Shown piece by piece: positions 1-24,706 of a stretch of DNA of 28,293 bases. The stretch spans positions 1 through 28,293 of IMG/VR virus record IMGVR_UViG_2667527592_000009, one strand, 5' to 3'. How positions within the stretch are numbered: position 1 is the stretch's first letter; each line of letters begins with the position of its first letter. The DNA comes from a virus. Taxonomy: Duplodnaviria; Heunggongvirae; Uroviricota; Caudoviricetes. The position numbers and the translations under genes are program-made. The notes under the pieces were generated by a model. The model was not told where the DNA came from and ran no database searches. It was given only the letters and a program-made list of their open reading frames with translations.

Positions 1-1077
<1,077 letters not shown>

Positions 1078-1820: not shown

Positions 1821-2471
1821 TTATCCGCTGCTTGAGTTGAAATCTGTGGGTTTACGGAGATTAGATCTTATGGTTTTTTCAGCGATACGAATAGTCGAAA
1901 ATTTATGCAGGTTCATCAGTGCTATACAAATCCCAAGTGCAAAAAAGTAGCTGGACATTCCTAATCTTTGCATATCAGTAAGTTTATTAATTTTCTCTAA
2001 AATATGTTGGGTTACTAATCCTTCGTATACAAAAGGTATGGAAGTTATAAAACCGCCAATAAAATAGAATGTTAAGCTTATCAGCTTTATAGATTTTCTA
2101 TATATCCAAAAGCGATATCTTTTTTTTGTCCATTTAAATATTTGTTTTTCACTACTAATAGAAATTAGTTTTTGACACTTGCTATAGTTATCAATGTCAT
2201 TAACTGGATCGTTAACACCTAAAAGAATCTCTCTCTGTTCTGGAGTTAGGTTCTTATCTTTTGTTATTGCAGCAATACCATAATTATATGCAACTTTCTT
2301 GATTTTGGGATCTTCAGTATTCTTATATAGATTGTATGCAAACTCGCTAATGTTTTTGCGCGAGTTGAAAATCTTATCTTTGGGGAAAACCCAGCCGGAT
2401 CTTACCGCGAGCATCTGTATGATCGGGGTAATTATCGCGACAGAATACTTAATTATCTCGTTTATGTTCAT
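1821..2471 (-). CDS. Hypothetical membrane protein (AT-rich moron between att and int)
   Basis: 216-aa ORF, visibly AT-rich; two C-terminal hydrophobic segments (SIKLISLTFYFIGGFITSIPFVY and SSYFFALGICIALMNL); start 14 nt downstream of int stop on the same strand. Confidence 0.5.
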   Translation of the reverse strand: MNINEIIKYSVAIITPIIQMLAVRSGWVFPKDKIFNSRKNISEFAYNLYKNTEDPKIKKVAYNYGIAAITKDKNLTPEQREILLGVNDPVNDIDNYSKCQKLISISSEKQIFKWTKKRYRFWIYRKSIKLISLTFYFIGGFITSIPFVYEGLVTQHILEKINKLTDMQRLGMSSYFFALGICIALMNLHKFSTIRIAEKTIRSNLRKPTDFNSSSG

Positions 2472-2485
2472 GATCCATTGTTTAC

Positions 2486-3502
2486 TTAAATTAAGTTATA
2501 AAGAGGGTTTTTTGTTACTGCATCCTCCAGGTGGTCTGGAGAGAAGTGTGCATAAATCATCGTCATTTTAATATCTGAGTGCCCTAAAATATCACGTAAA
2601 ACGAGTATGTTCCCACCGTTCATCATAAAATGGCTGGCAAATGTATGGCGCAGGACGTGGGTGCATTGGCCTTCCGGTAGTTCAATACCGGCCCGTTTTA
2701 CCGCCCGTTCAAAGGCTTTTCTGCATGGTGTGAATAATTTCCCTCGGTTTTTGGGTAGCTCGTTGTACAGATCCTGAGATATCGGTACGGTACGGTTTTT
2801 TTTACCCTTGGTCTTTGTATAGGTAATCCGGTATTTCGATAGTTGATGGCCCTGCAGGTTTTCAGCTTCACTCCAACGAGCACCGGTTGCTAGGCATATT
2901 TTTGCAATCATTAGCAGACTGGGGCTTTGAGAATCAGCACAGGCATCCAGCAGACGTTTAATTTCCTCCGGGGTTAGGAACGCCAGTTCACCCTCCGTAA
3001 TTTTAAATGTTGGAAGCCCGGCAAGCGGGTTGGGGGCTGACCAGTGGCCCAGCTTTTTCAGTGTACCAAAAACAGATGATAGGTTGCGCTGTTCAAGGTT
3101 TACCGTGCGGGGCTTAACGGGTGACATGAACGAGCCGTCTTCATTTTGGACCTCCCCCTTTAATCTGGCTTCCCGATATTTTGTGAAATCACCTGCTGTC
3201 AGCTCAGAGGCGATGGGATCGCCTAGACCATTACAGATAATTCTAAGTTTCGCCATCAGGCGTTTGGGGTCTGCGAGTGTTTGACCATATAGGGAATACC
3301 ACTGCTCAATCACTTCTGATAATCGCCGCCGATCTTCCTTCTCACCAAGCCATGGCTTTTTGTTTACTTCGTTCATGGTGAAGTTTTCGAATGCTATGGC
3401 TTCGCCTTTCGTGGCAAATTGCTTACGCACGCGCTTGCCATTGCGTCCATTGGGATAGCACTCACACAACCATTTTCCGTTCGGCTGTTTTCTGATGGTC
3501 AT
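2486..3502 (-). CDS. int: Tyrosine site-specific integrase, P2/186 family
   Basis: 338-aa ORF with C-terminal catalytic motifs (GARWSEA, HVLRHTFASHF, LGHS...MIYAHF); sits next to the att core and is transcribed toward it; 1-nt gap to upstream cI. Confidence 0.9.
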   Translation of the reverse strand: MTIRKQPNGKWLCECYPNGRNGKRVRKQFATKGEAIAFENFTMNEVNKKPWLGEKEDRRRLSEVIEQWYSLYGQTLADPKRLMAKLRIICNGLGDPIASELTAGDFTKYREARLKGEVQNEDGSFMSPVKPRTVNLEQRNLSSVFGTLKKLGHWSAPNPLAGLPTFKITEGELAFLTPEEIKRLLDACADSQSPSLLMIAKICLATGARWSEAENLQGHQLSKYRITYTKTKGKKNRTVPISQDLYNELPKNRGKLFTPCRKAFERAVKRAGIELPEGQCTHVLRHTFASHFMMNGGNILVLRDILGHSDIKMTMIYAHFSPDHLEDAVTKNPLYNLI

Positions 3503-5870: not shown

Positions 5871-6104
5871 ATGCGTAATATTGAAACCCTCTCGACTAAA
5901 ACCGGACCGGATGACGCAGGGCTTAATATTTTACTGACAGAGGCTCGTCTGGAAGAACGCCGGGCAAGGGCTGAAGCAATGGCAGCTCGCCTTGATAGCC
6001 TGGCGTGTCATATCACATCCCGCCAGCTAAACCACGTCGAAGCGGCAGAACTGCTGCGTGTAACTGCTGAAGCAATCCAGAACGAAGCGCAGGAGATCCA
6101 CTAA
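5871..6104 (+). CDS. Hypothetical early-operon protein
   Basis: ATG at 5871 with RBS AGGAGA 8 nt upstream; stop overlaps the next gene start (TAATG). Confidence 0.5.
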   Translation: MRNIETLSTKTGPDDAGLNILLTEARLEERRARAEAMAARLDSLACHITSRQLNHVEAAELLRVTAEAIQNEAQEIH

Positions 6105-6331
6105 TGGCTGATGCAATGGATCTCGTACAGCAGCGCGTTGAAGAAGAACGCCAGCGCCATATTCGTGCTGCCCGTGCCAAAACACCGGGCGTGTCTCGCG
6201 TGCTTTGTATTGAATGTGAAGCGCCAATTCCGCCAGCACGACGCCGCGCCATTCCGGGAGTGCAGCTTTGCATTACCTGCCAGGAAATCGTAGAGCTGAA
6301 AGGCAAACATTACAACGGAGGTGCTGTATGA
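6104..6331 (+). CDS. TraR/DksA-family C4 zinc-finger protein
   Basis: 75-aa ORF with CIECEAPIP...CITCQ (CxxC-N17-CxxC) typical of phage/plasmid TraR-like proteins; stop overlaps next start (ATGA). Confidence 0.7.
6317..6331 (+). repeat. 15-nt direct repeat GGAGGTGCTGTATGA (copy 1, TraR-like stop / ASCH-like start junction)
   Basis: Exact match to 6616-6630. Confidence 0.8.
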
Positions 6332-6630
6332 CAGGGGCTGTGCGTATCCATCAATTAAAAATTGCACCTAAGTATTTCAATGCTGTGGTTGCAGGTCAAA
6401 AGACGGCTGAACTTCGTAAAGACGATCGTGGCTATAAAGTTGGTGATGTTCTTTCTCTTTGCGAATGGAAGCATGGCGTATTTACGGGTAGGGAATGGGC
6501 CGCGGTTATCTCTCATGTGCTTCCGGTTAATGACGTCATGGCAGTTTCAGAACAATGGGTGATGCTATCAATTCGCTCATTAACCCCATTAGAAGCTTTA
6601 GGATATGTTATTGCAGGAGGTGCTGTATGA
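6328..6630 (+). CDS. ASCH/DUF3850-like small protein (putative RNA-binding fold)
   Basis: 100-aa ORF from ATG 6328 with RBS GGAGG; family assignment from recalled motif resemblance only; flanked by identical 15-nt junction repeats. Confidence 0.4.
6616..6630 (+). repeat. 15-nt direct repeat GGAGGTGCTGTATGA (copy 2, ASCH-like stop / Dam start junction)
   Basis: Exact match to 6317-6331; both upstream proteins end in GGAV*. Confidence 0.8.
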
Positions 6631-7484
6631 GCACCATCCTGAAATGGGCGGGAAATAAAACCGCAATTATGTCTGAACTGAAAAAACACCTTCCTGCTGG
6701 CCCGCGACTGGTTGAACCTTTCGCGGGTTCCTGTGCTGTGATGATGGAGACGGATTATCCAAGCTATCTGGTTGCGGATATTAATCCTGATTTAATCAAC
6801 CTCTATAAAAAGGTTGCCGCTGATTGTGAATCGTTTATATCTCGCGCCAGAGTTTTATTTAAGGAAGCAAACAGGGAGGTGGCTTATTACAACATAAGGC
6901 AGGAGTTTAATTACTCAAATGAAATTACTGATTTCATGAAAGCGGTATATTTCCTGTATCTCAATCGTCACGGTTACCGTGGTTTATGTCGCTATAACAA
7001 GAGCGGGCATTTCAACATTCCCTACGGTAATTATAAAAATCCGTATTTCCCAGAAAAAGAAATTCGCGCATTTGCAGAAAAAGCCCAGCGGGCAACGTTT
7101 ATCTGCGCCAGCTTTGATGAAACGCTGGCGATGTTGAAGGCGGAGGATGTGGTGTATTGCGATCCGCCGTATGACGGCACGTTTTCCGGTTATCACACTG
7201 ACGGCTTCACTGAAGATGACCAGTATCACCTGGCATCCGTTCTTGAACATCGGTCATCAGAAGGACATCCGGTCATTGTTTCTAACAGTGACACATCCCT
7301 GATCCGTTCGCTGTATCGCAATTTTACTCACCACTACATCAAGGCAAAACGCAGCATCGGTGTGGCAGCTGGCGAGGGTAAATCAGCAACAGAAATCATT
7401 GCTGTTTCCGGGCCGCGCTGCTGGGTGGGATTTGATTATTCGCGTGGCGTGGATAGTTCTGCCGTGTACGGAGTACGTGCATGA
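6627..7484 (+). CDS. dam: DNA adenine methyltransferase (Dam-like, GATC-type N6-adenine MTase)
   Basis: 285-aa product with KWAGNK (AdoMet binding) and DPPY catalytic motif, [15 protein letters not shown] block as in E. coli Dam; start overlaps previous stop and stop overlaps gene A start. Confidence 0.85.
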
Positions 7485-9895
7485 GTCATGCCGATATGAA
7501 CAACTGCTGCGGCTTTAACGAAGCTGCCGCATCGTTCTCATGGAACAGCCCGAAAAAGGCCATTAACCCTTATCTGGACCCGGCGGAAGTTGCGCCGGTT
7601 TCTACGCTTTCAAACCTGATCACTCTGTACGCTGCCGATAACGAGCAGGAACAGCTGCGCCGTGAGGCGCTGAGTGATCAGGTCTGGGAGCGTTATTTCT
7701 TTAATGAATCCCGTGATCCTGTCCAGCGCGAAATGGAGCAGGATAAGCTCATTAGTCGGGCAAAGCTGGCGCATGAGCAGCAGCGTTTTAACCCGGACAT
7801 GGTCATTCTGGCAGACGTCAGCGCCCAGCCCTCCCATATCAGCAAGCCGCTGATGCAACGTATTGAATACTTCAGCAGCCTTGGCAGGCCAAAGGCTTAT
7901 TCCCGCTATTTGCGTGAGACGATTAAGCCATGTCTGGAACGGCTGGAGCATGTACGCGACAGTCAGCTATCCACATCTTTTCGCTTTATGGCAAGCCATG
8001 AAGGGCTGGACGGCCTGCTGATTCTGCCTGAAATGAGTCAGGATCAGGTGAAACGCCTGTCCACCCTTGTTGCTGCGCATATGAGCATGTGCCTTGATGC
8101 AGCTTGTGGCGATTTGTATGCCACCGATGACGTTAAGCCAGAAGAAATCCGCAAGACATGGGAAAAGGTGGCAGCAGAAACCCTGCGACTGGATGTCATA
8201 CCGCCTGCGTTTGAGCAACTCCGCCGGAAAAGAAACCGCCGTAAACCCGTGCCATATGAACTCATTCCGGGTTCGCTGGCGCGTATGTTGTGCGCCGATT
8301 GGTGGTACCGGAAATTATGGAAGATGCGTTGCGAATGGCGGGAAGAGCAGTTGCGTGCTGTTTGCCTGGTCAGCAAAAAAGCATCTCCCTATGTCAGCTA
8401 TGAAGCCGTGATGCATAAACGTGAGCAGCGCCGTAAGTCGCTGGAGTTTTTCCGTTCTCATGAACTGGTGAACGAAGACGGCGACACGCTGGACATGGAG
8501 GATGTGGTAAACGCCAGCAGCAGCAACCCTGCGCATCGCCGCAATGAGATGATGGCCTGTGTTAAAGGTCTGGAGCTTATCGCGGAAATGCGCGGTGACT
8601 GCGCCGTTTTCTACACCATCACCTGTCCGTCACGTTTCCATTCCACGCTAAATAACGGCAGGCCCAACCCGACCTGGACAAATACGACGGTAAGACAAAG
8701 CAGTGATTATCTGGTCGGCATGTTTGCTGCATTTCGTAAGGCGATGCACAAAGCCGGATTGCGCTGGTATGGCGTGCGGGTGGCTGAGCCGCATCATGAC
8801 GGTACAGTTCACTGGCACCTGTTGTGTTTTATGAGCAAAAAAGATCGCCGCACCATTACTGCTTTGTTGCGTAAGTTTGCCATTCGTGAAGACCGCGAGG
8901 AGCTGGGTAATAACACGGGACCACGCTTTAAGTCTGAGCTGATAAACCCGCGCAAAGGTACGCCAACAAGCTACATCGCGAAATACATCAGTAAGAACAT
9001 TGACGGGCGTGGTCTGGCTGGCGAGATCAGCAAGGAAACGGGTAAATCCCTGCGTGATAACGCTGAATACGTTAATGCCTGGGCGTCTCTGCATCGTGTT
9101 CAGCAATTCCGCTTCTTTGGCATTCCGGGGCGTCAGGCTTACCGTGAACTGCGATTGCTGGCTGGTCAGGCGGCAAGGCAACAGGGGGACAAAAAAGCAG
9201 GTGCGCCGGTACTGGATAACCCGCGCCTTGATGCAATCCTGGCTGCTGCTGATGCTGGTTGTTTTGCCACCTACATCATGAAGCAGGGCGGCGTACTGGT
9301 TCCCCGCAAATATCACCTCATCAGAACTGCTTATGAAATCAACGAAGAACCGACCGCATATGGCGATCACGGTATTCGTATTTATGGCATCTGGTCACCC
9401 ATTGCAGAGGGCAAGATCTGCACTCATGCGGTGAAGTGGAAAATGGTTCGTAAGGCCGTTGACGTTCAGGAGGCGGCAGCCGACCAGGGCGCTTGCGCCC
9501 CTTGGACTCGTGGCAATAACTGTCCCCTTGCTGAAAATTTGAACCAACAAGGGAAAGACAAATCAGCTGATGGGGATACCAGAACGGACATTACCCGCAT
9601 GGATGACAAGGAGTTGCACGAATACCTGCACAGTATGAGCAAAAAAGAGCGCCGGGAACTGGCTGCAAGGTTACGCCTGGTGAAACCGAAACGGCGTAAA
9701 GACTACAAACAGCGAATTACAGACCATCAGCGACAGCAGCTCGTCTATGAACTGAAGTCCAGAGGATTTGATGGCAGCGAGAAAGAGGTCGATTTACTCC
9801 TTCGCGGCGGCAGTATTCCGTCAGGAGCAGGCCTGCGTATCTTCTATCGGAACCAGCGTTTGCAGGAAGATGATAAGTGGCGGAACCTGTATTAA
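7481..9895 (+). CDS. A: Replication initiation endonuclease, P2 gpA family (rolling-circle initiator)
   Basis: 804-aa ORF with HUH-like TVHWHLLCF and two-tyrosine YIAKYISK motifs; position after the early operon as in P2/186. Confidence 0.85.
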
Positions 9896-11665: not shown

Positions 11666-13426
11666 ATGGTCGCAACTTCTAAATTACTACTTTTGAAAGT
11701 CGCAGCATCTCGTGCTGACTTGGCAAAATTGCTAGATGTTAAGTTGGTGTTTTTAACGAATATTCTTTACAGAATTGGTACTGATAATCAGTATAAAGAT
11801 TTCTCTATTCCAAAAAAAGGTAAGGGAGTCAGATTGATTTCTGCGCCAGAAGATAGTTTGAAAGATCTCCAAAGACGAATAGCCGATCTTTTAATGGAGT
11901 GTAGAGATGAAACTTTCAAAATTAAAAAAATTAAAAACAATTACTCCTTTGGTTTTGAAAGAAATAAGTCAATAATTTCCAATGCTTTCAGACATCGTGG
12001 GAAAAATATAATACTCAATATTGATCTTAAGGATTTTTTCAAAAGCTTTAATTTTGGGCGAGTGAGAGGGTACTTCCTATCCAATAGGGATTTCTTATTA
12101 AATCCGATTGTCGCCACTACTTTAGCTAAAGCCGCATGCTATAAGGGAAGTTTGCCTCAGGGTAGCCCGTGTTCTCCAGTGATAACAAACTTAATTTGTA
12201 GCATTATGGATATTAGATTAGCTAAATTAGCAAAGAGTTTAGGTTGTTCATATAGTCGTTATGCCGATGACATCACGTTTTCAACTAATAAAAAAGAATT
12301 TCCTACCGATTTGGCAATATCTCTTCCTGAGGGGGTTGTCTTGGGGAGCATTCTTGTCAGTGAAATAAAACGTGCTGGTTTTGATATTAATGATGCTAAA
12401 ACAAGGATCTCGTACAAATCCACGAGACAAGAAGTTACGGGACTTACTATAAATAGATTTGTTAACGTTGATAGGAAATATTCGAATAAAACAAGAGCAT
12501 TAGCTCATTCACTTTATAGTAAGGGAGAATATAAGCTACCTGATGAAGATGGTAAGCTAGTCGTGGGGAGTATCGAAAAACTAGAGGGAAGATTTGGGTT
12601 TATTGACCAGATTGATAAATTTAATAACATACAAGATAAAATAAGTAAACAGCCTGAAAAATATGCGCCTATTCATATTACATTAAAAAACTACAGGTTA
12701 AAGCTGAATGTACGAGAGAAGGCATATAGTAAATTTATTTACTACAAGTTTTTTCATGGACATGCTTCCCCGACAATCTTGACAGAAGGCAAAACTGATC
12801 GAGTATATTTAAAATCAGCTATTCGTTCACTTTCTGCCAAATTTCCTGAGTTGCTCAAGAAAAGCACAGACGGTAAAGGAAATGATATCAACTTGAATAT
12901 TTTTAAATCTGATGAGAAGTCAAGTTATTTTATTAATATGTCTGGAGGTAGCGCAGATCTTAAAAAATTCATCGAAAGATATATGGATGAATATTCAAGC
13001 TACTATGGAAGCATTCCTAAGCACCCGGTTATCATGGTATTGGACAACGATTCTGGTTCTAATGAGATTTTGAATTTCCTTAAAAATAATGTTAAGGGCT
13101 GCCCCGATGATACCAATAAAATGAGAAAAATGAGATTTATCCATGTCTTTAAAAATCTCTATATCATTCTAACGCCTTTAAGTGCTACTGGTGAGCAGAC
13201 TGCGATGGAAGATCTTTTTACTCATGATGTATTATCAACTATTCTTGGTGGTAAAAAATTTAACAAAAAGAACGATGGGGACTCAAAAACTGAATATGGG
13301 AAACATGTTTTCTCTGTGAAAGTAGTTAGGGATAAAAAACGAAAAGTTGATTTTAGTGGTTTTGAAATAATACTCAACACTTTTAAAGATGTTTTTGAAC
13401 ATTATAAAAAAATATGCAGCATATAG
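11666..13426 (+). CDS. ret: Retron reverse transcriptase fused to C-terminal TOPRIM (OLD-like) domain, Retron-Ec67 type
   Basis: 586 aa; RT motifs [25 protein letters not shown] (nt 12260-12271), VTGLTIN; C-terminal TOPRIM signatures ILTEGKTD and VLDNDSGS; AT-rich. Confidence 0.85.
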
Positions 13427-21388: not shown

Positions 21389-21782
21389 AGCGGTGCCTTA
21401 TGTCCGCAATAACCCGGACAAACTGCATCTGTTTGTGGATAACGGTTCGCTGGTTGCCACGGGGGCCAGCTCCATGTCGTGGGAGTACCGTTACACACTG
21501 AACGCGGTGATTGAGGATTTCAGCGGCGACCAGAATCTGCTGATGGCCCCGGTTTTGCTGTGGCTGAGGGATAACCAGCCCGATGCCATCAATAACCCGG
21601 CGTTACGGGAAAAGCTATTCACCTTTGAGGTGGATATTCTGCGCAACGATGTCTGTGATATCAGCCTGAACCTGCAACTGACGGAACGTGTGCTGGTCAG
21701 CACTGACGGCAGTGTGTCGAGCGTTGAAGCTATAGCGGAACCTGATGCACCTGAAGAAATGTGGACGGTGAAATGTGGCTGA
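21330..21782 (+). CDS. R: Tail completion protein R (P2 gpR-like); true start may be GTG at 21348
   Basis: About 150-aa ORF in conserved lysis-R-S order. Confidence 0.7.
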   Translation: MRVRSETVNKPQSLRHALNKAVPYVRNNPDKLHLFVDNGSLVATGASSMSWEYRYTLNAVIEDFSGDQNLLMAPVLLWLRDNQPDAINNPALREKLFTFEVDILRNDVCDISLNLQLTERVLVSTDGSVSSVEAIAEPDAPEEMWTVKCG

Positions 21783-22233
21783 ACTGCAGAAGGTGGACGA
21801 CTGGCTGAGTGCCTTGCTGGCGAATCTGGAACCAGCCTCGAGAAGCCGCATGATGCGCCAGCTGGCGCAGGAACTTCGCCGGACACAGCAGCAGAATATC
21901 AGGATGCAGCGCAACCCTGACGGCAGCAGCTATGAACCGCGACGGGTAACAGCACGCAGTAAAAAAGGCCGTATCAAACGTCAGATGTTTGCAAAGCTGC
22001 GCACCACAAAATACCTGAAAACTGCCGCCAGCGCCGACTCTGCCAGCGTGCAGTTTGAAGGTAAGGTACAGCGCATTGCCCGTGTTCACCATTACGGTCT
22101 GCGTGATCGCGTCAGTCGCAAAGGACCGGACGTACGGTATGCAGAGCGGCGTTTGTTGGGTATTAACAATGATATTGAGAACAACGTTAAGAATGTTTTT
22201 TATCAATGGTTAATTAATAACAATAAGCCGTAA
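21775..22233 (+). CDS. S: Tail completion/virion morphogenesis protein S (P2 gpS-like)
   Basis: 152-aa ORF overlapping the R stop. Confidence 0.75.
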   Translation: MAELQKVDDWLSALLANLEPASRSRMMRQLAQELRRTQQQNIRMQRNPDGSSYEPRRVTARSKKGRIKRQMFAKLRTTKYLKTAASADSASVQFEGKVQRIARVHHYGLRDRVSRKGPDVRYAERRLLGINNDIENNVKNVFYQWLINNNKP

Positions 22234-22259
22234 AAATTTTAGATTAAAAATAAGTTATG

Positions 22260-22286
22260 AACGGGTGGCCTAGGAGGCCACCCGTT
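22260..22286. terminator. Bidirectional Rho-independent terminator between S (plus) and the minus-strand insert gene
   Basis: Perfect 12-bp stem AACGGGTGGCCT / AGGCCACCCGTT with 3-nt loop; T-runs on both strands. Confidence 0.6.
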
Positions 22287-22288
22287 AT

Positions 22289-23989
22289 TTATTCAAGGTG
22301 ATTTGAAAGAGTAATTAATGGCTCAATCGGTTGGAACGCTTTTAAGGATGTTAATATGTTTTTAACTTCCTTTGATACGATAGATAACGGGTTGTCTGTT
22401 ACAGATAAGTAGGTGGTTAAATCTTGACCTGAAACACGGATAACATGTGGTAATATCGCAGTTATAACTGGTGTCCAAAGGTCGATTAAATCATCCAGAG
22501 AGTTATTTTTAGATAATGCTGTATCATATTTATATTTTATTTTCTTCTTGTTCAAAGGTTTATCTGTTAATTCTTCAAGTATTTCTCCGATGACGGATAT
22601 TAAAAAGAATCGAGACTTTAAATTTTGGAGGAATAATAAGTTATCCTCATCTACTTTAATTTTATTCTCTTTTGCACGGATTTGAGATTTTACTTTTTCT
22701 ATAGCTTTTGAAATAGTGTAAGCACATAAAATATGCTGGGCTTTCGAATCATGAAAGGCATTGTCATAGGCTGATTTTGTATCGAAAACGTAGTTTTTAC
22801 CTCTATTGGCGCTAACATAATCCCCATGTAACGCTATCAGCGGTTGAGCAACAGACTCAATGCCAAATAAAGAACCAGTATTTTCGAAGCCGCGTTTCAG
22901 TGAATATGTATAACCAAGAGTGGAAAATTCTTCTGCCACCTGTTTTTGTTCTGTGCTGTTAGAGTAGTGATCCCAGGTTGTAATATGATTCTGAGTATTA
23001 TTATACTGGACTATTTTTTTTACTTTGTCCGCATCATTACATTCAATAACCTTACAAAGGACTTTTAGGCCATCTAATTTTTGTATATCTTGAACTGAAC
23101 CAATAGAACCAGTGGTTTGAGCTCCATTTATGATTGAAACTCCTTCCAACAACCCTTTTTCTTTGTTGAATTTTGTTGTTAGGATTGATACACCATTGTT
23201 AAAGACAAAGAAGTCTTTTGGGGATGTTTCTGCGGTATTCTTAATTGATGAGTTTATTTTTCTTCTCTTATTTAATCCCATGAACCCCCTATAATTAGCA
23301 GAAAATAATTCTGCTCCATAATTTTTGTATAAATAATTTAGCCAAGTGCCGTTTGCAAAGCCAACATGTGAAGTCCAGCCATCACCTTGTACAGAATTTA
23401 TAAGTTCGCCATTGAACTTTATATTGTCAGTCACAACAATTTGTTGTGATAGCGCAATATACAATTTTTCAAGACTATTAACACCAAGTTCTCTGTAAGT
23501 TACCTCAATTTCTTTGTCTGCAAATCTACCTGCTAGATAGTCACGACAAGTTTCAAGCTCAGTTTTAACCTGCTCAGATTCGGCACAATTATGGATATAT
23601 AATAATTCAACAGCTTCAATTTCGTTATCATCAATTAATTTTCTAACCTCAGAAATTTTTGCTCTTAATTTTGCATTTGGAGACTCTCCTGAGCCTGCCA
23701 TAATCCACGCTAAAGCAGTGTTTAAGTCAGAAGCTTTATTTGCAGGCGCAACTATTTTAAGTGCTTGCTGATTGCAATAGTAACCCTGAGCAATAAATAA
23801 CGTTGAATTAATTACGGTAATGAAGTCTATTTTCTTATCGTTTCCACCATCAGTAAGTCCATCAGATGCTAGCTTATCAAAATCGGATTCATCTAAGTAA
23901 AGACCTAATGACCATAAAAGATGTGCGTTACTAGTCCCGTACTTTTCTAACAGGGAAGTTTTATTTTGCAGTTGTCTTAAGTGTTCCAT
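22289..23989 (-). CDS. Large AT-rich hypothetical protein, AIPR-like abortive-infection candidate (defence moron)
   Basis: 566-aa minus-strand ORF interrupting the otherwise contiguous S-V late-gene order; markedly AT-rich; own terminator; AIPR-family call is from recalled sequence character and is unverified. Confidence 0.5.
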   Translation of the reverse strand: MEHLRQLQNKTSLLEKYGTSNAHLLWSLGLYLDESDFDKLASDGLTDGGNDKKIDFITVINSTLFIAQGYYCNQQALKIVAPANKASDLNTALAWIMAGSGESPNAKLRAKISEVRKLIDDNEIEAVELLYIHNCAESEQVKTELETCRDYLAGRFADKEIEVTYRELGVNSLEKLYIALSQQIVVTDNIKFNGELINSVQGDGWTSHVGFANGTWLNYLYKNYGAELFSANYRGFMGLNKRRKINSSIKNTAETSPKDFFVFNNGVSILTTKFNKEKGLLEGVSIINGAQTTGSIGSVQDIQKLDGLKVLCKVIECNDADKVKKIVQYNNTQNHITTWDHYSNSTEQKQVAEEFSTLGYTYSLKRGFENTGSLFGIESVAQPLIALHGDYVSANRGKNYVFDTKSAYDNAFHDSKAQHILCAYTISKAIEKVKSQIRAKENKIKVDEDNLLFLQNLKSRFFLISVIGEILEELTDKPLNKKKIKYKYDTALSKNNSLDDLIDLWTPVITAILPHVIRVSGQDLTTYLSVTDNPLSIVSKEVKNILTSLKAFQPIEPLITLSNHLE

Positions 23990-24062
23990 TTACCAAGCTT
24001 CTTTTTTGTTAATGAGATAACTCTCAATAATTTATAGATAGTAGTCGTTTTTTGCCAGTTGT

Positions 24063-24080
24063 TTGTGACAGCCGTGATAC
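24063..24080. promoter_or_regulatory. Late-promoter activator dyad TGT-N12-ACA upstream of V
   Basis: TGTgacagccgtgatACA about 50 bp upstream of the V start codon. Confidence 0.4.
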
Positions 24081-24127
24081 AACTATCAAAGCTACTTCTC
24101 AATTTTGAGATATAGCAGTCTATTTTC

Positions 24128-24706
24128 ATGAACACACAACTAACCGAAATCATGCGCCTTATCACCAACCTGATCCGCACTGGGGTAGTCACCGAAGTGG
24201 ACCGGGAAAACTGGCTTTGTCGGGTGAAAACAGGCGACTTAGAAACCAACTGGATCAGCTGGCTGACCCTGCGTGCCGGGAATGCCCGGACATGGTGGCG
24301 ACCATCGGAAGGTGAGCAGGTGGTGCTGCTGAGTCTGGGCGGCAATCTGGAGACCGCCTTTGCGCTGCCCGCTGTCTATTCGAATCAGTTCGCACCACCG
24401 TCGACGTCGGCGGACGCCTGCGTGACAGAACATCCTGACGGTGGCTGGTTTGAATACGAACCCGCCACCGGGCGCTGGTATGTCAGGGGCATCAAATCCA
24501 TGGTTATTGAGGCTGCCGACAATATCACCCTGAAAACCAGTGAGTTTGTGCTGGAGGCTGACCGCACGCGTATTAATAGTGAAGTAGTGATCAATGGCGG
24601 CGTTACCCAGGGCGGCGGTGCGATGAGTTCTAACGGGATCGTGGTTGATGCGCATCAGCATACTGGCGTCCTGAAAGGCGGCGATACAACCGGAGGCCCG
24701 GTATGA
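24128..24706 (+). CDS. V: Baseplate assembly/spike protein V (P2 gpV-like)
   Basis: 192-aa ORF with Gly-rich C-terminus; conserved V-W-J-I order. Confidence 0.8.
   Translation: MNTQLTEIMRLITNLIRTGVVTEVDRENWLCRVKTGDLETNWISWLTLRAGNARTWWRPSEGEQVVLLSLGGNLETAFALPAVYSNQFAPPSTSADACVTEHPDGGWFEYEPATGRWYVRGIKSMVIEAADNITLKTSEFVLEADRTRINSEVVINGGVTQGGGAMSSNGIVVDAHQHTGVLKGGDTTGGPV

Follow-up and report, generated by a model that had tools for sequence, protein, structure and literature searches.

An AIPR/AbiU-family gene, a probable defence cargo, in the orf30 slot between S and V of a P2/186-like prophage

AbiU (AbiUi or AbiU1), which is encoded on the Lactococcus lactis plasmid pND001, is the founder of the AIPR family and, according to the summary of Dai et al. 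2001 given in PMC13064643, delays phage transcription and lowers the plating efficiency 10- to 100-fold. The core of AIPR proteins has been called a "ParB superfamily nuclease domain" (PMC3632139), and AbiU-1 was placed beside Upx within the PD-(D/E)XK superfamily in 2026 (PMC13099982). In phage P2, the non-essential gene orf30 is located on the minus strand between the tail genes S and V, and together with TO (old/tin) and Z (Z/fun), orf30 makes up the classical set of three regions that vary among P2-like phages (PMC3091744). Here we describe an AIPR/AbiU-family gene that is inserted between S and V of a P2/186-like prophage, represented by the IMG/VR record IMGVR_UViG_2667527592_000009 (Caudoviricetes; positions 1 to 28,293, hereafter referred to as the window of 28,293 nucleotides). 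We regard it as highly probable that this gene is a defence cargo of the AIPR/AbiU family residing in the orf30 slot.

The encoded protein resembles AbiU in its size (566 aa, compared with 568 aa for AbiU in a review figure), in being a single-protein system, and in matching both the AIPR profile of Pfam and the AbiU profile of PADLOC. For both proteins the best match of the AlphaFold model in the PDB is the nuclease FokI over ~145 residues, and the same match has been given for lactococcal AbiUi in a 2026 review (PMC13064643). The genomic surroundings differ: AbiU is found on a plasmid of a Gram-positive host beside a second gene, AbiUii, which encodes a HEPN protein, whereas the gene described here stands alone in a coliphage. 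The locus itself has the layout of P2 orf30, with S, the terminator of the O operon, an AT-rich minus-strand gene (GC content 0.35 in P2 and 0.34 here), the activator site of promoter pV, and V following each other in the same order. The cargo genes are unrelated, as P2 Orf30 has 261 aa and matches no Pfam or PADLOC profile.

Family membership, relatives and predicted architecture

The open reading frame (ORF) begins with ATG and lies in strongly AT-rich DNA (GC about 0.33 for the ORF versus 0.55; 0.33–0.36 over positions 22501–24000 versus 0.52–0.60 in the flanking late genes). Since it spans 566 codons in DNA of 33% GC and its Pfam match is far above the threshold, it is not a chance ORF. 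An earlier annotation made from the letters of the window (the sequence-only reading) had described an AT-rich opposite-strand gene of 566 aa between S and V, and this is borne out by the ORF list and the GC profile; the span that it assigned to the gene, 22234–24062, is the whole intergenic interval, while the ORF itself covers 22289..23989. The protein is identical to RefSeq WP_000400690.1, "AIPR family protein". The DNA of the S-V region is 99.9–100% identical in Escherichia coli S88, MS7163, BEN5202 (100% across the region) and N53, for which RefSeq lists a "phage virion morphogenesis protein", the "AIPR family protein" and a "phage baseplate assembly protein V" in this order.

The protein matched Pfam AIPR (PF10592) with 90.9 bits compared to a gathering cut-off of 25 (E = 1.6e-25; aa 229–498, profile positions 1–289 of 308), the PADLOC AbiU profile PDLC02357 with E = 1.7e-24 (aa 115–511, profile positions 138–513 of 537, or ~70% of both), and PHROG 1841 over the full length with E = 4e-146. 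Judged by these profiles, membership in the AIPR family is unambiguous. The three matches agree with the proposal of the sequence-only reading that the gene belongs to an abortive-infection or defence family; the likeness to AIPR proteins, which it had called only loose, turned out to be strong. Its description of the gene as poorly characterised holds for the mechanism but not for the phenotype, which has been published for AbiU, nor for the ParB-superfamily nature of AIPR, which was described in 2013 (PMC3632139).

The AIPR profile PF10592 was present in all 120 homologues listed. More than 1,000 matches were obtained in a collection clustered at 90%, and 3,583 clusters at 50% identity had E ≤ 1e-3, with 198 at E ≤ 1e-30. 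Full-length relatives have ~570 aa and are taxonomically scattered. A profile search detected copies in at least 175 species representatives from the cyanobacteria, Bacteroidota, Firmicutes, Acidobacteriota, Planctomycetota, Chloroflexota, Actinomycetota and the methanogenic archaea; searching the species-representative genomes with the protein alone gave no relative, so that a profile was needed. A phmmer search against the PDB sequences returned nothing relevant. One described AIPR protein, MzaE of the five-gene MZA system, has the AIPR core in common with the 566-aa protein (NCBIfam MzaE, E = 1.3e-13; PADLOC MzaE, E = 5e-9; aa 213–349), but only ~135 residues align. Membership in MzaE was rejected, because the score of 50.3 bits falls far below the equivalog cut-off of 1050 and the neighbours are the phage genes S and V; no MzaA-D partner genes occur near the AIPR gene.

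The genomic contexts of the homologues vary widely. In Pantoea ananatis (loci L085 and L086 of our collection; 6001–7701), an 80%-identical AIPR gene and two small downstream ORFs are situated at the border of a P2-like prophage, beside ogr/D/U in one strain and gpA/CI in the other. As these copies adjoin different phage modules, the same defence gene occupies different P2-like slots across genera. The copy in Aeromonas was inserted on its own, with an acetyltransferase gene and thrC on either side, Burkholderia copies are plasmid-borne beside integrases and IS110, and a metagenomic copy adjoins an nSTAND NTPase system. Across 80 loci from different species of bacteria and archaea, the commonest neighbour family was found in 4, with varying side and strand. 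The four contexts with unrelated neighbours and the lack of any neighbour family in more than 4 of the 80 loci are in line with the single-gene unit suggested by the sequence-only reading. By this comparison of gene neighbourhoods, the AIPR gene stands alone with no conserved partner gene, and it may be sufficient for defence.

The AlphaFold model of the 566-aa protein (pLDDT 83.4) has three parts (Table 1), and the predicted architecture comprises a PD-(D/E)xK-like N-terminus, a ParB/Srx-like core, and a helical tail. Structural neighbours of the N-terminal domain are restriction-type nucleases. The conserved core adopts a ParB/Srx fold in the model and shows weak structural similarity to BrxU and SspE, and the C-terminal domain is helical in secondary structure with pLDDT 85–97 in the full-length model. 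Foldseek returned nothing significant. In an alignment of members that are 23–44% identical, six residues of the N-terminal domain are invariant, as are N232, R234, N246, N265-G266, G283, N288-G289-x-Q291, G294 and N331-x-Q333-N334 in the core; this alignment contains no invariant columns past aa 334. These architecture findings are not new in principle, as they are preceded by PMC3632139, PMC13064643 and PMC13099982. An N-terminal HEPN domain has also been ascribed to AIPR proteins (PMC3506569). We rejected HEPN for the N-terminal domain of this protein because of its restriction-type nuclease neighbours and because our alignments contain no conserved R-x(4-6)-H motif.

The S-V junction as a variable cargo site

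The orf30 region has been treated as a site of horizontal transfer (PMC3091744), and another cargo at the S-V site has been described (PMC6823313). Recent work on defence hotspots centres on the gpA-gpQ locus (PMC9122126), and TO, Z/fun and the tail-to-CI site were listed as hotspots elsewhere (bioRxiv 10.1101/2024.10.15.618418); by these two accounts, the orf30 site has received far less attention as a defence hotspot than the TO locus. We compared the occupancy of the junction among the 80 IMG/VR loci with the best V matches (V 97–100% identical), 78 of which contain both S and V. In 53 of these 78 loci the junction is empty, with S and V 65–159 bp apart, and in the other 25 it holds inserts of 0.55–2.2 kb. 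An evenly spaced sample of 52 junctions, drawn from 1,046 E. coli records carrying these S/V flanks, contained 30 empty and 22 occupied junctions. The AIPR gene was found in one of the 78 IMG/VR loci, and the exact gene in 4 of 5,426 complete E. coli genomes (4 of the 1,046 E. coli records with these flanks).

The adjacency of S and V, which the sequence-only reading had expected to be normal, thus holds for only about two thirds of the loci, and P2 itself has orf30 between them. The insertion site had also been set apart from two canonical P2 cargo hotspots (tin/old and Z/fun); it is no new hotspot, given the classical status of the orf30 region (PMC3091744). Compared with the annotated P2 record and the 25 occupied junctions, the locus is a moron cassette of the P2 orf30 site. 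RefSeq already names the family, and the gene by itself is a rare allele of a catalogued defence family at a catalogued variable site.

Only the position between the tail genes S and V would speak for a role in the tail module of the phage, be it structural or in the lytic cycle. The gene is oriented opposite to the late operon with a terminator between them, has a foreign GC content, is absent from two thirds of the phages whose V is 97–100% identical, and has homologues outside phages on chromosomes, on plasmids and in archaea. We consider the chance of such a role to be negligible, as it is refuted by the junction census. With the gene in 4 of the 1,046 E. coli flank records and 53 of 78 relatives lacking any insert, its earlier interpretation as acquired, non-structural, opposite-strand AT-rich cargo is upheld.

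The borders of the exchanged unit were derived from alignments of six or seven junction types. Sequence common to all types breaks off ~75 nt short of the S stop codon and is regained precisely at the ATG of V, so that each cassette encodes the last ~25 residues of S and brings its own pV promoter region. The C-terminal end of S accordingly comes in an AT-rich version particular to each cargo type (window positions 22155–22233; equivalents in loci L005, L008, L022 and L035), which accounts for S being only 84–96% identical to the S of close relatives, compared with 97–100% for V across the 80 IMG/VR loci. The identity of S to P2 S is 37%.

A perfect hairpin of 12 base pairs (8 G-C, 3-nt loop) at 22260–22286 separates S from the convergent AIPR gene. 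It folds with −24.4 kcal/mol on one strand and −22.6 kcal/mol on the other (z-scores of −5.2 and −6.0), and none of 200 shuffled sequences folded as well. At the equivalent position of the P2 record, a rho-independent terminator is annotated for the O operon. We conclude that the hairpin is the terminator of the late operon ending in S, and it probably also terminates the AIPR transcript. The sequence-only reading had called it a perfect-hairpin bidirectional terminator; position and perfect stem were confirmed, whereas bidirectionality is plausible and half supported, as the terminator scan called the hairpin on the plus strand only and the T-run on the minus strand begins ~9 nt past the stem. 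At the corresponding position past its stop codon, the Pantoea homologue has another perfect hairpin that differs from this one, and the terminator therefore belongs to the gene unit.

At the other end of the cassette, a TGT-N12-ACA dyad (TGT at 24064–24066, ACA at 24079–24081) is located upstream of V, one base off the coordinates 24063–24080 under which it had first been recognised as the V late-promoter dyad. In the P2 record, a feature equally far from V is annotated as "activator binding site; activation of pV promoter". The distance between TGT/ACA and the V ATG is fixed in six cassettes and the empty junction, with a single-base gap in one cassette, while the sequence around it differs among the cassettes and is otherwise unrelated.

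Table 1 Features of the S-V region of the window, with positions, strand and basis of assignment.
Feature	Coordinates	Strand	Basis
AIPR/AbiU-family gene, 566 aa	22289..23989	-	ORF, Pfam, PADLOC, PHROG, RefSeq
N-terminal domain, aa 1 to ~182, predicted PD-(D/E)xK-like nuclease fold; invariant D51, D55, Q68, K85, H133, N134	23444..23989	-	model
Central region, aa 183–420, beta-hairpin module and AIPR core with ParB/Srx-like fold	22730..23443	-	model
C-terminal all-helical domain, aa 421–566, poorly conserved sequence	22292..22729	-	model
Exchangeable AT-rich cassette (S 3' tail of ~25 codons, terminator, cargo gene, own pV promoter region)	22155..24127	.	junction alignments and GC profile
G+C-rich hairpin with 12 perfect pairs, separating the convergent genes S and AIPR	22260..22286	.	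folding and terminator scan
TGT-N12-ACA dyad, Ogr/Delta-type activator site of the V late promoter	24064..24081	+	sequence, P2 annotation, position conservation
Putative AIPR promoter and leader	23990..24063	-	read by eye; tentative
Tail-completion gene S (left flank)	21775..22233	+	ORF list and RefSeq annotation
Baseplate gene V (right flank)	24128..24706	+	ORF list and RefSeq annotation

The IMG/VR inserts represent ~14 unrelated cargo families, all with a GC content of 0.31–0.35 and all but one type on the minus strand. PADLOC recognised AriA and AriB (PARIS), a fused AriAB/OLD-like ATPase-Toprim protein, ApeA-like proteins and PDC-S59 among them, and the remaining IMG/VR cargo families had no PADLOC match. 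A Pfam scan covering six of the PADLOC-negative families yielded only DUF6216 (260-aa type) above the threshold. The cargo genes in the E. coli sample were annotated as TIR-domain, DUF6216, DUF2971, FRG-domain and hypothetical proteins, and as IS1. Over half of the at least 14 cargo families of the S-V junction are without a recognisable domain. The occupancy census and the PADLOC-recognised cargo together indicate that the junction is a defence-enriched variable slot. The slot is thus a compact place in which to look for candidates of new defence genes, complementing the well-mined gpA-gpQ hotspot.

A more far-reaching interpretation is that the S-V (orf30) junction is a distinct and under-described defence hotspot at which whole cassettes are swapped, each with an S tail, a terminator and a version of the pV promoter of its own, and that the AIPR subfamily, combining a variant nuclease of the D...Q-x-Y/K type with an arginine-less ParB-like core, is an immune nuclease with an undescribed switching mechanism. 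We put this forward tentatively, as we consider it doubtful in its entirety.

Proposed mode of action and its alternatives

On balance, and with moderate confidence, we favour the interpretation of the gene as a stand-alone AIPR/AbiU defence nuclease that was acquired horizontally as a moron cassette of a P2/186-like prophage and whose domains act as follows. In the lysogen, a promoter of its own, within the 138-bp divergent region that it has in common with pV, would drive transcription of the AIPR gene. This transcription would oppose the silent late operons, and the hairpin would insulate the two by stopping both the late transcript that ends in S and the AIPR transcript. Upon infection by another phage, the ParB/Srx-like core, possibly together with the helical tail, would act as a sensor or nucleotide-dependent switch that allows DNA to be cut by the N-terminal nuclease domain. 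Such cutting would stall early phage gene expression, which fits the delayed transcription and the 10- to 100-fold drop in plating caused by AbiU, and the outcome would be either direct immunity, with survival of the cell, or abortive infection, with its death. Whether the domains divide the labour in precisely this manner we judge to be an even bet.

The closest working analogy is provided by GmrSD, BrxU and SspE, in which a ParB-like NTPase domain (DUF262) is fused to, and controls, a nuclease of the HNH type (DUF1524). In the 566-aa protein the domain order is reversed, with the predicted nuclease at the N-terminus, and this nuclease is PD-(D/E)xK-like instead of HNH. The comparison is meant as an analogy and not as membership; the protein matches neither DUF262 nor DUF1524 in Pfam and lacks the arginine of the DGQQR motif. 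The single-protein PD-(D/E)xK defence nucleases Upx, Shedu SduA, HamA and Can2, in turn, keep the canonical E-x-K and have other partner domains and no AIPR/ParB-like core.

Several observations weigh against the favoured interpretation. The canonical (D/E)xK is absent from the N-terminal domain, where Q68-G-Y70 occupies the equivalent strand and the next helix holds the invariant K85, and nuclease catalysis by this domain is therefore putative. The first 114 residues are outside the match to the PADLOC AbiU profile; because this profile aligns only aa 115–511, homology of this part, with D51, D55, Q68 and K85, to AbiU is without support at the sequence level. The GxxR or DGQQR arginine is missing from the core, in which the equivalent strand-helix junction reads I-N288-G-A-Q291-T-T with neither Arg nor His, and when 21 fragments of the core were searched against Pfam with HMMER, neither ParB (ParBc) nor DUF262 nor DndB was matched with E values up to 10, so that nucleotide binding by the core is an analogy only. 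Upstream of the AIPR gene, a −35-like CTGGCA (24058–24053) and a −10-like TATAAA (24036–24031) are discernible by eye, and a sigma-70 consensus scan detected no minus-strand promoter there. The only tested E. coli AIPR protein that we found, from a P4 satellite (pFR77), is listed among the constructs without reported protection. With 30% identity over 158 aa, pFR77 and the 566-aa protein have only the core in common, and pFR77 is therefore weak evidence with respect to the latter.

Some of these deviations may be variations within the family. The P4 AIPR protein keeps D...Q-S-K at the equivalent place, and the D...Q-x-Y/K arrangement may thus represent an active variant of the catalytic site; the invariant R234 of N-Y-R-G-F could substitute for the arginine missing from the core. 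Alternatively, in a defence protein of this same family, the domain roles may be reversed: the ParB-like AIPR core would be catalytic, as a ParB-type nuclease or NTPase, and the restriction-endonuclease-like N-terminal fold would be a degenerate module for DNA binding or target recognition. Such a reversal would agree with the reading Q68-G-Y70 in place of (D/E)xK, with 13 invariant residues in the core compared with 6 in the N-terminal domain, and with the naming of the core as a nuclease domain (PMC3632139). It is at odds with the invariance of D51, D55, Q68, K85, H133 and N134 among proteins that are 23–44% identical, a degree of conservation that a module serving only for binding would not usually require, with the D...Q-S-K of the P4 protein, by which Q-x-K looks like the active-site variant of the family, and with a core that is without the conserved Arg of ParB/Srx nucleotide sites. 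We regard reversed roles as unlikely.

Slightly less likely still is a passenger without anti-phage function in E. coli, be it an inert or decaying moron, a factor that excludes plasmids or satellites, or one that stabilises the prophage. No phenotype is known for the AIPR subfamily, the protection conferred by lactococcal AbiU is only modest, the gene is rare (4 of 5,426 genomes), and the distant construct pFR77 would fit a passenger as well. The reading frame is intact, though, and full-length relatives that are 40–85% identical are spread over many phyla and keep polar residues of two domains strictly invariant, which points to purifying selection on an enzyme. Furthermore, the slot elsewhere holds PARIS, OLD-like, ApeA-like and TIR genes, and one relative is located beside an nSTAND conflict system.

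The position of the gene in an E. coli prophage is of practical value. AIPR/AbiU proteins are widespread in bacteria and archaea, and 25 years after AbiU, the copy in this genetically tractable host offers an entry to their mechanism, for which a short list of invariant residues is now given.

Further cargo of the junction and of the prophage

Seven cargo families of the S-V junction had no PADLOC match: 393 aa (L008, L011 and L021), 304 aa (L054), 314 aa (L024 and L057), 250 aa (L052), 189 aa (L053), 253 aa (L081) and 146 aa (L009). Those of 393, 314, 304 and 189 aa were the four scanned against Pfam, and they had no match above the threshold. Membrane-spanning stretches are predicted for several of the seven. 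As PARIS, OLD-like, ApeA-like and TIR genes are their neighbours in the slot, these families are candidates for undescribed defence or exclusion genes. The sole cargo type on the plus strand, and thus co-oriented with the late genes, was found in L002 (Klebsiella phage Kp4865-2), L012, L039 and L064. It encodes a 503-aa protein with a Walker-A-like GRKGTGKT motif, sub-threshold Pfam matches to AAA_7 and ORC-CDC6-like profiles only, and no PADLOC match.

A second defence cargo of the prophage is located at TO, a classical hotspot, with the A/DinI genes on one side and the portal gene Q on the other. This AT-rich ORF of 586 aa (11666–13426, plus strand) matched the PADLOC retron RT-Toprim type I-C profiles over the full length (E = 1e-212) and Pfam RVT_1; Rfam had no match in the window, neither the msr/msd RNA of a retron nor a riboswitch or leader near the AIPR gene. 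The TO cargo of the S88 prophage differs and is a "putative HEPN" gene that was cloned as pFR103 in Rousset et al. 2022. Another AT-rich block (GC 0.32–0.41) contains an ORF of 216 aa (1821–2471, minus strand) without a Pfam or PADLOC match, which is situated between the host gene csiD (1–978, minus strand) and the prophage integrase gene (2486–3502), in the att-integrase interval that is a minor defence hotspot of P2 (PMC13586616). The S88 prophage carries the same AIPR cassette, and the left half of the window differs from it in length. In the window, the replication gene A (7481–9895, plus strand) is an intact ORF of 804 codons, whereas RefSeq has its S88 counterpart (L004, 6467–8907) as frameshifted. 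The intact gene A and the different length of the left half indicate that the window represents a prophage related, but not identical, to that of S88.

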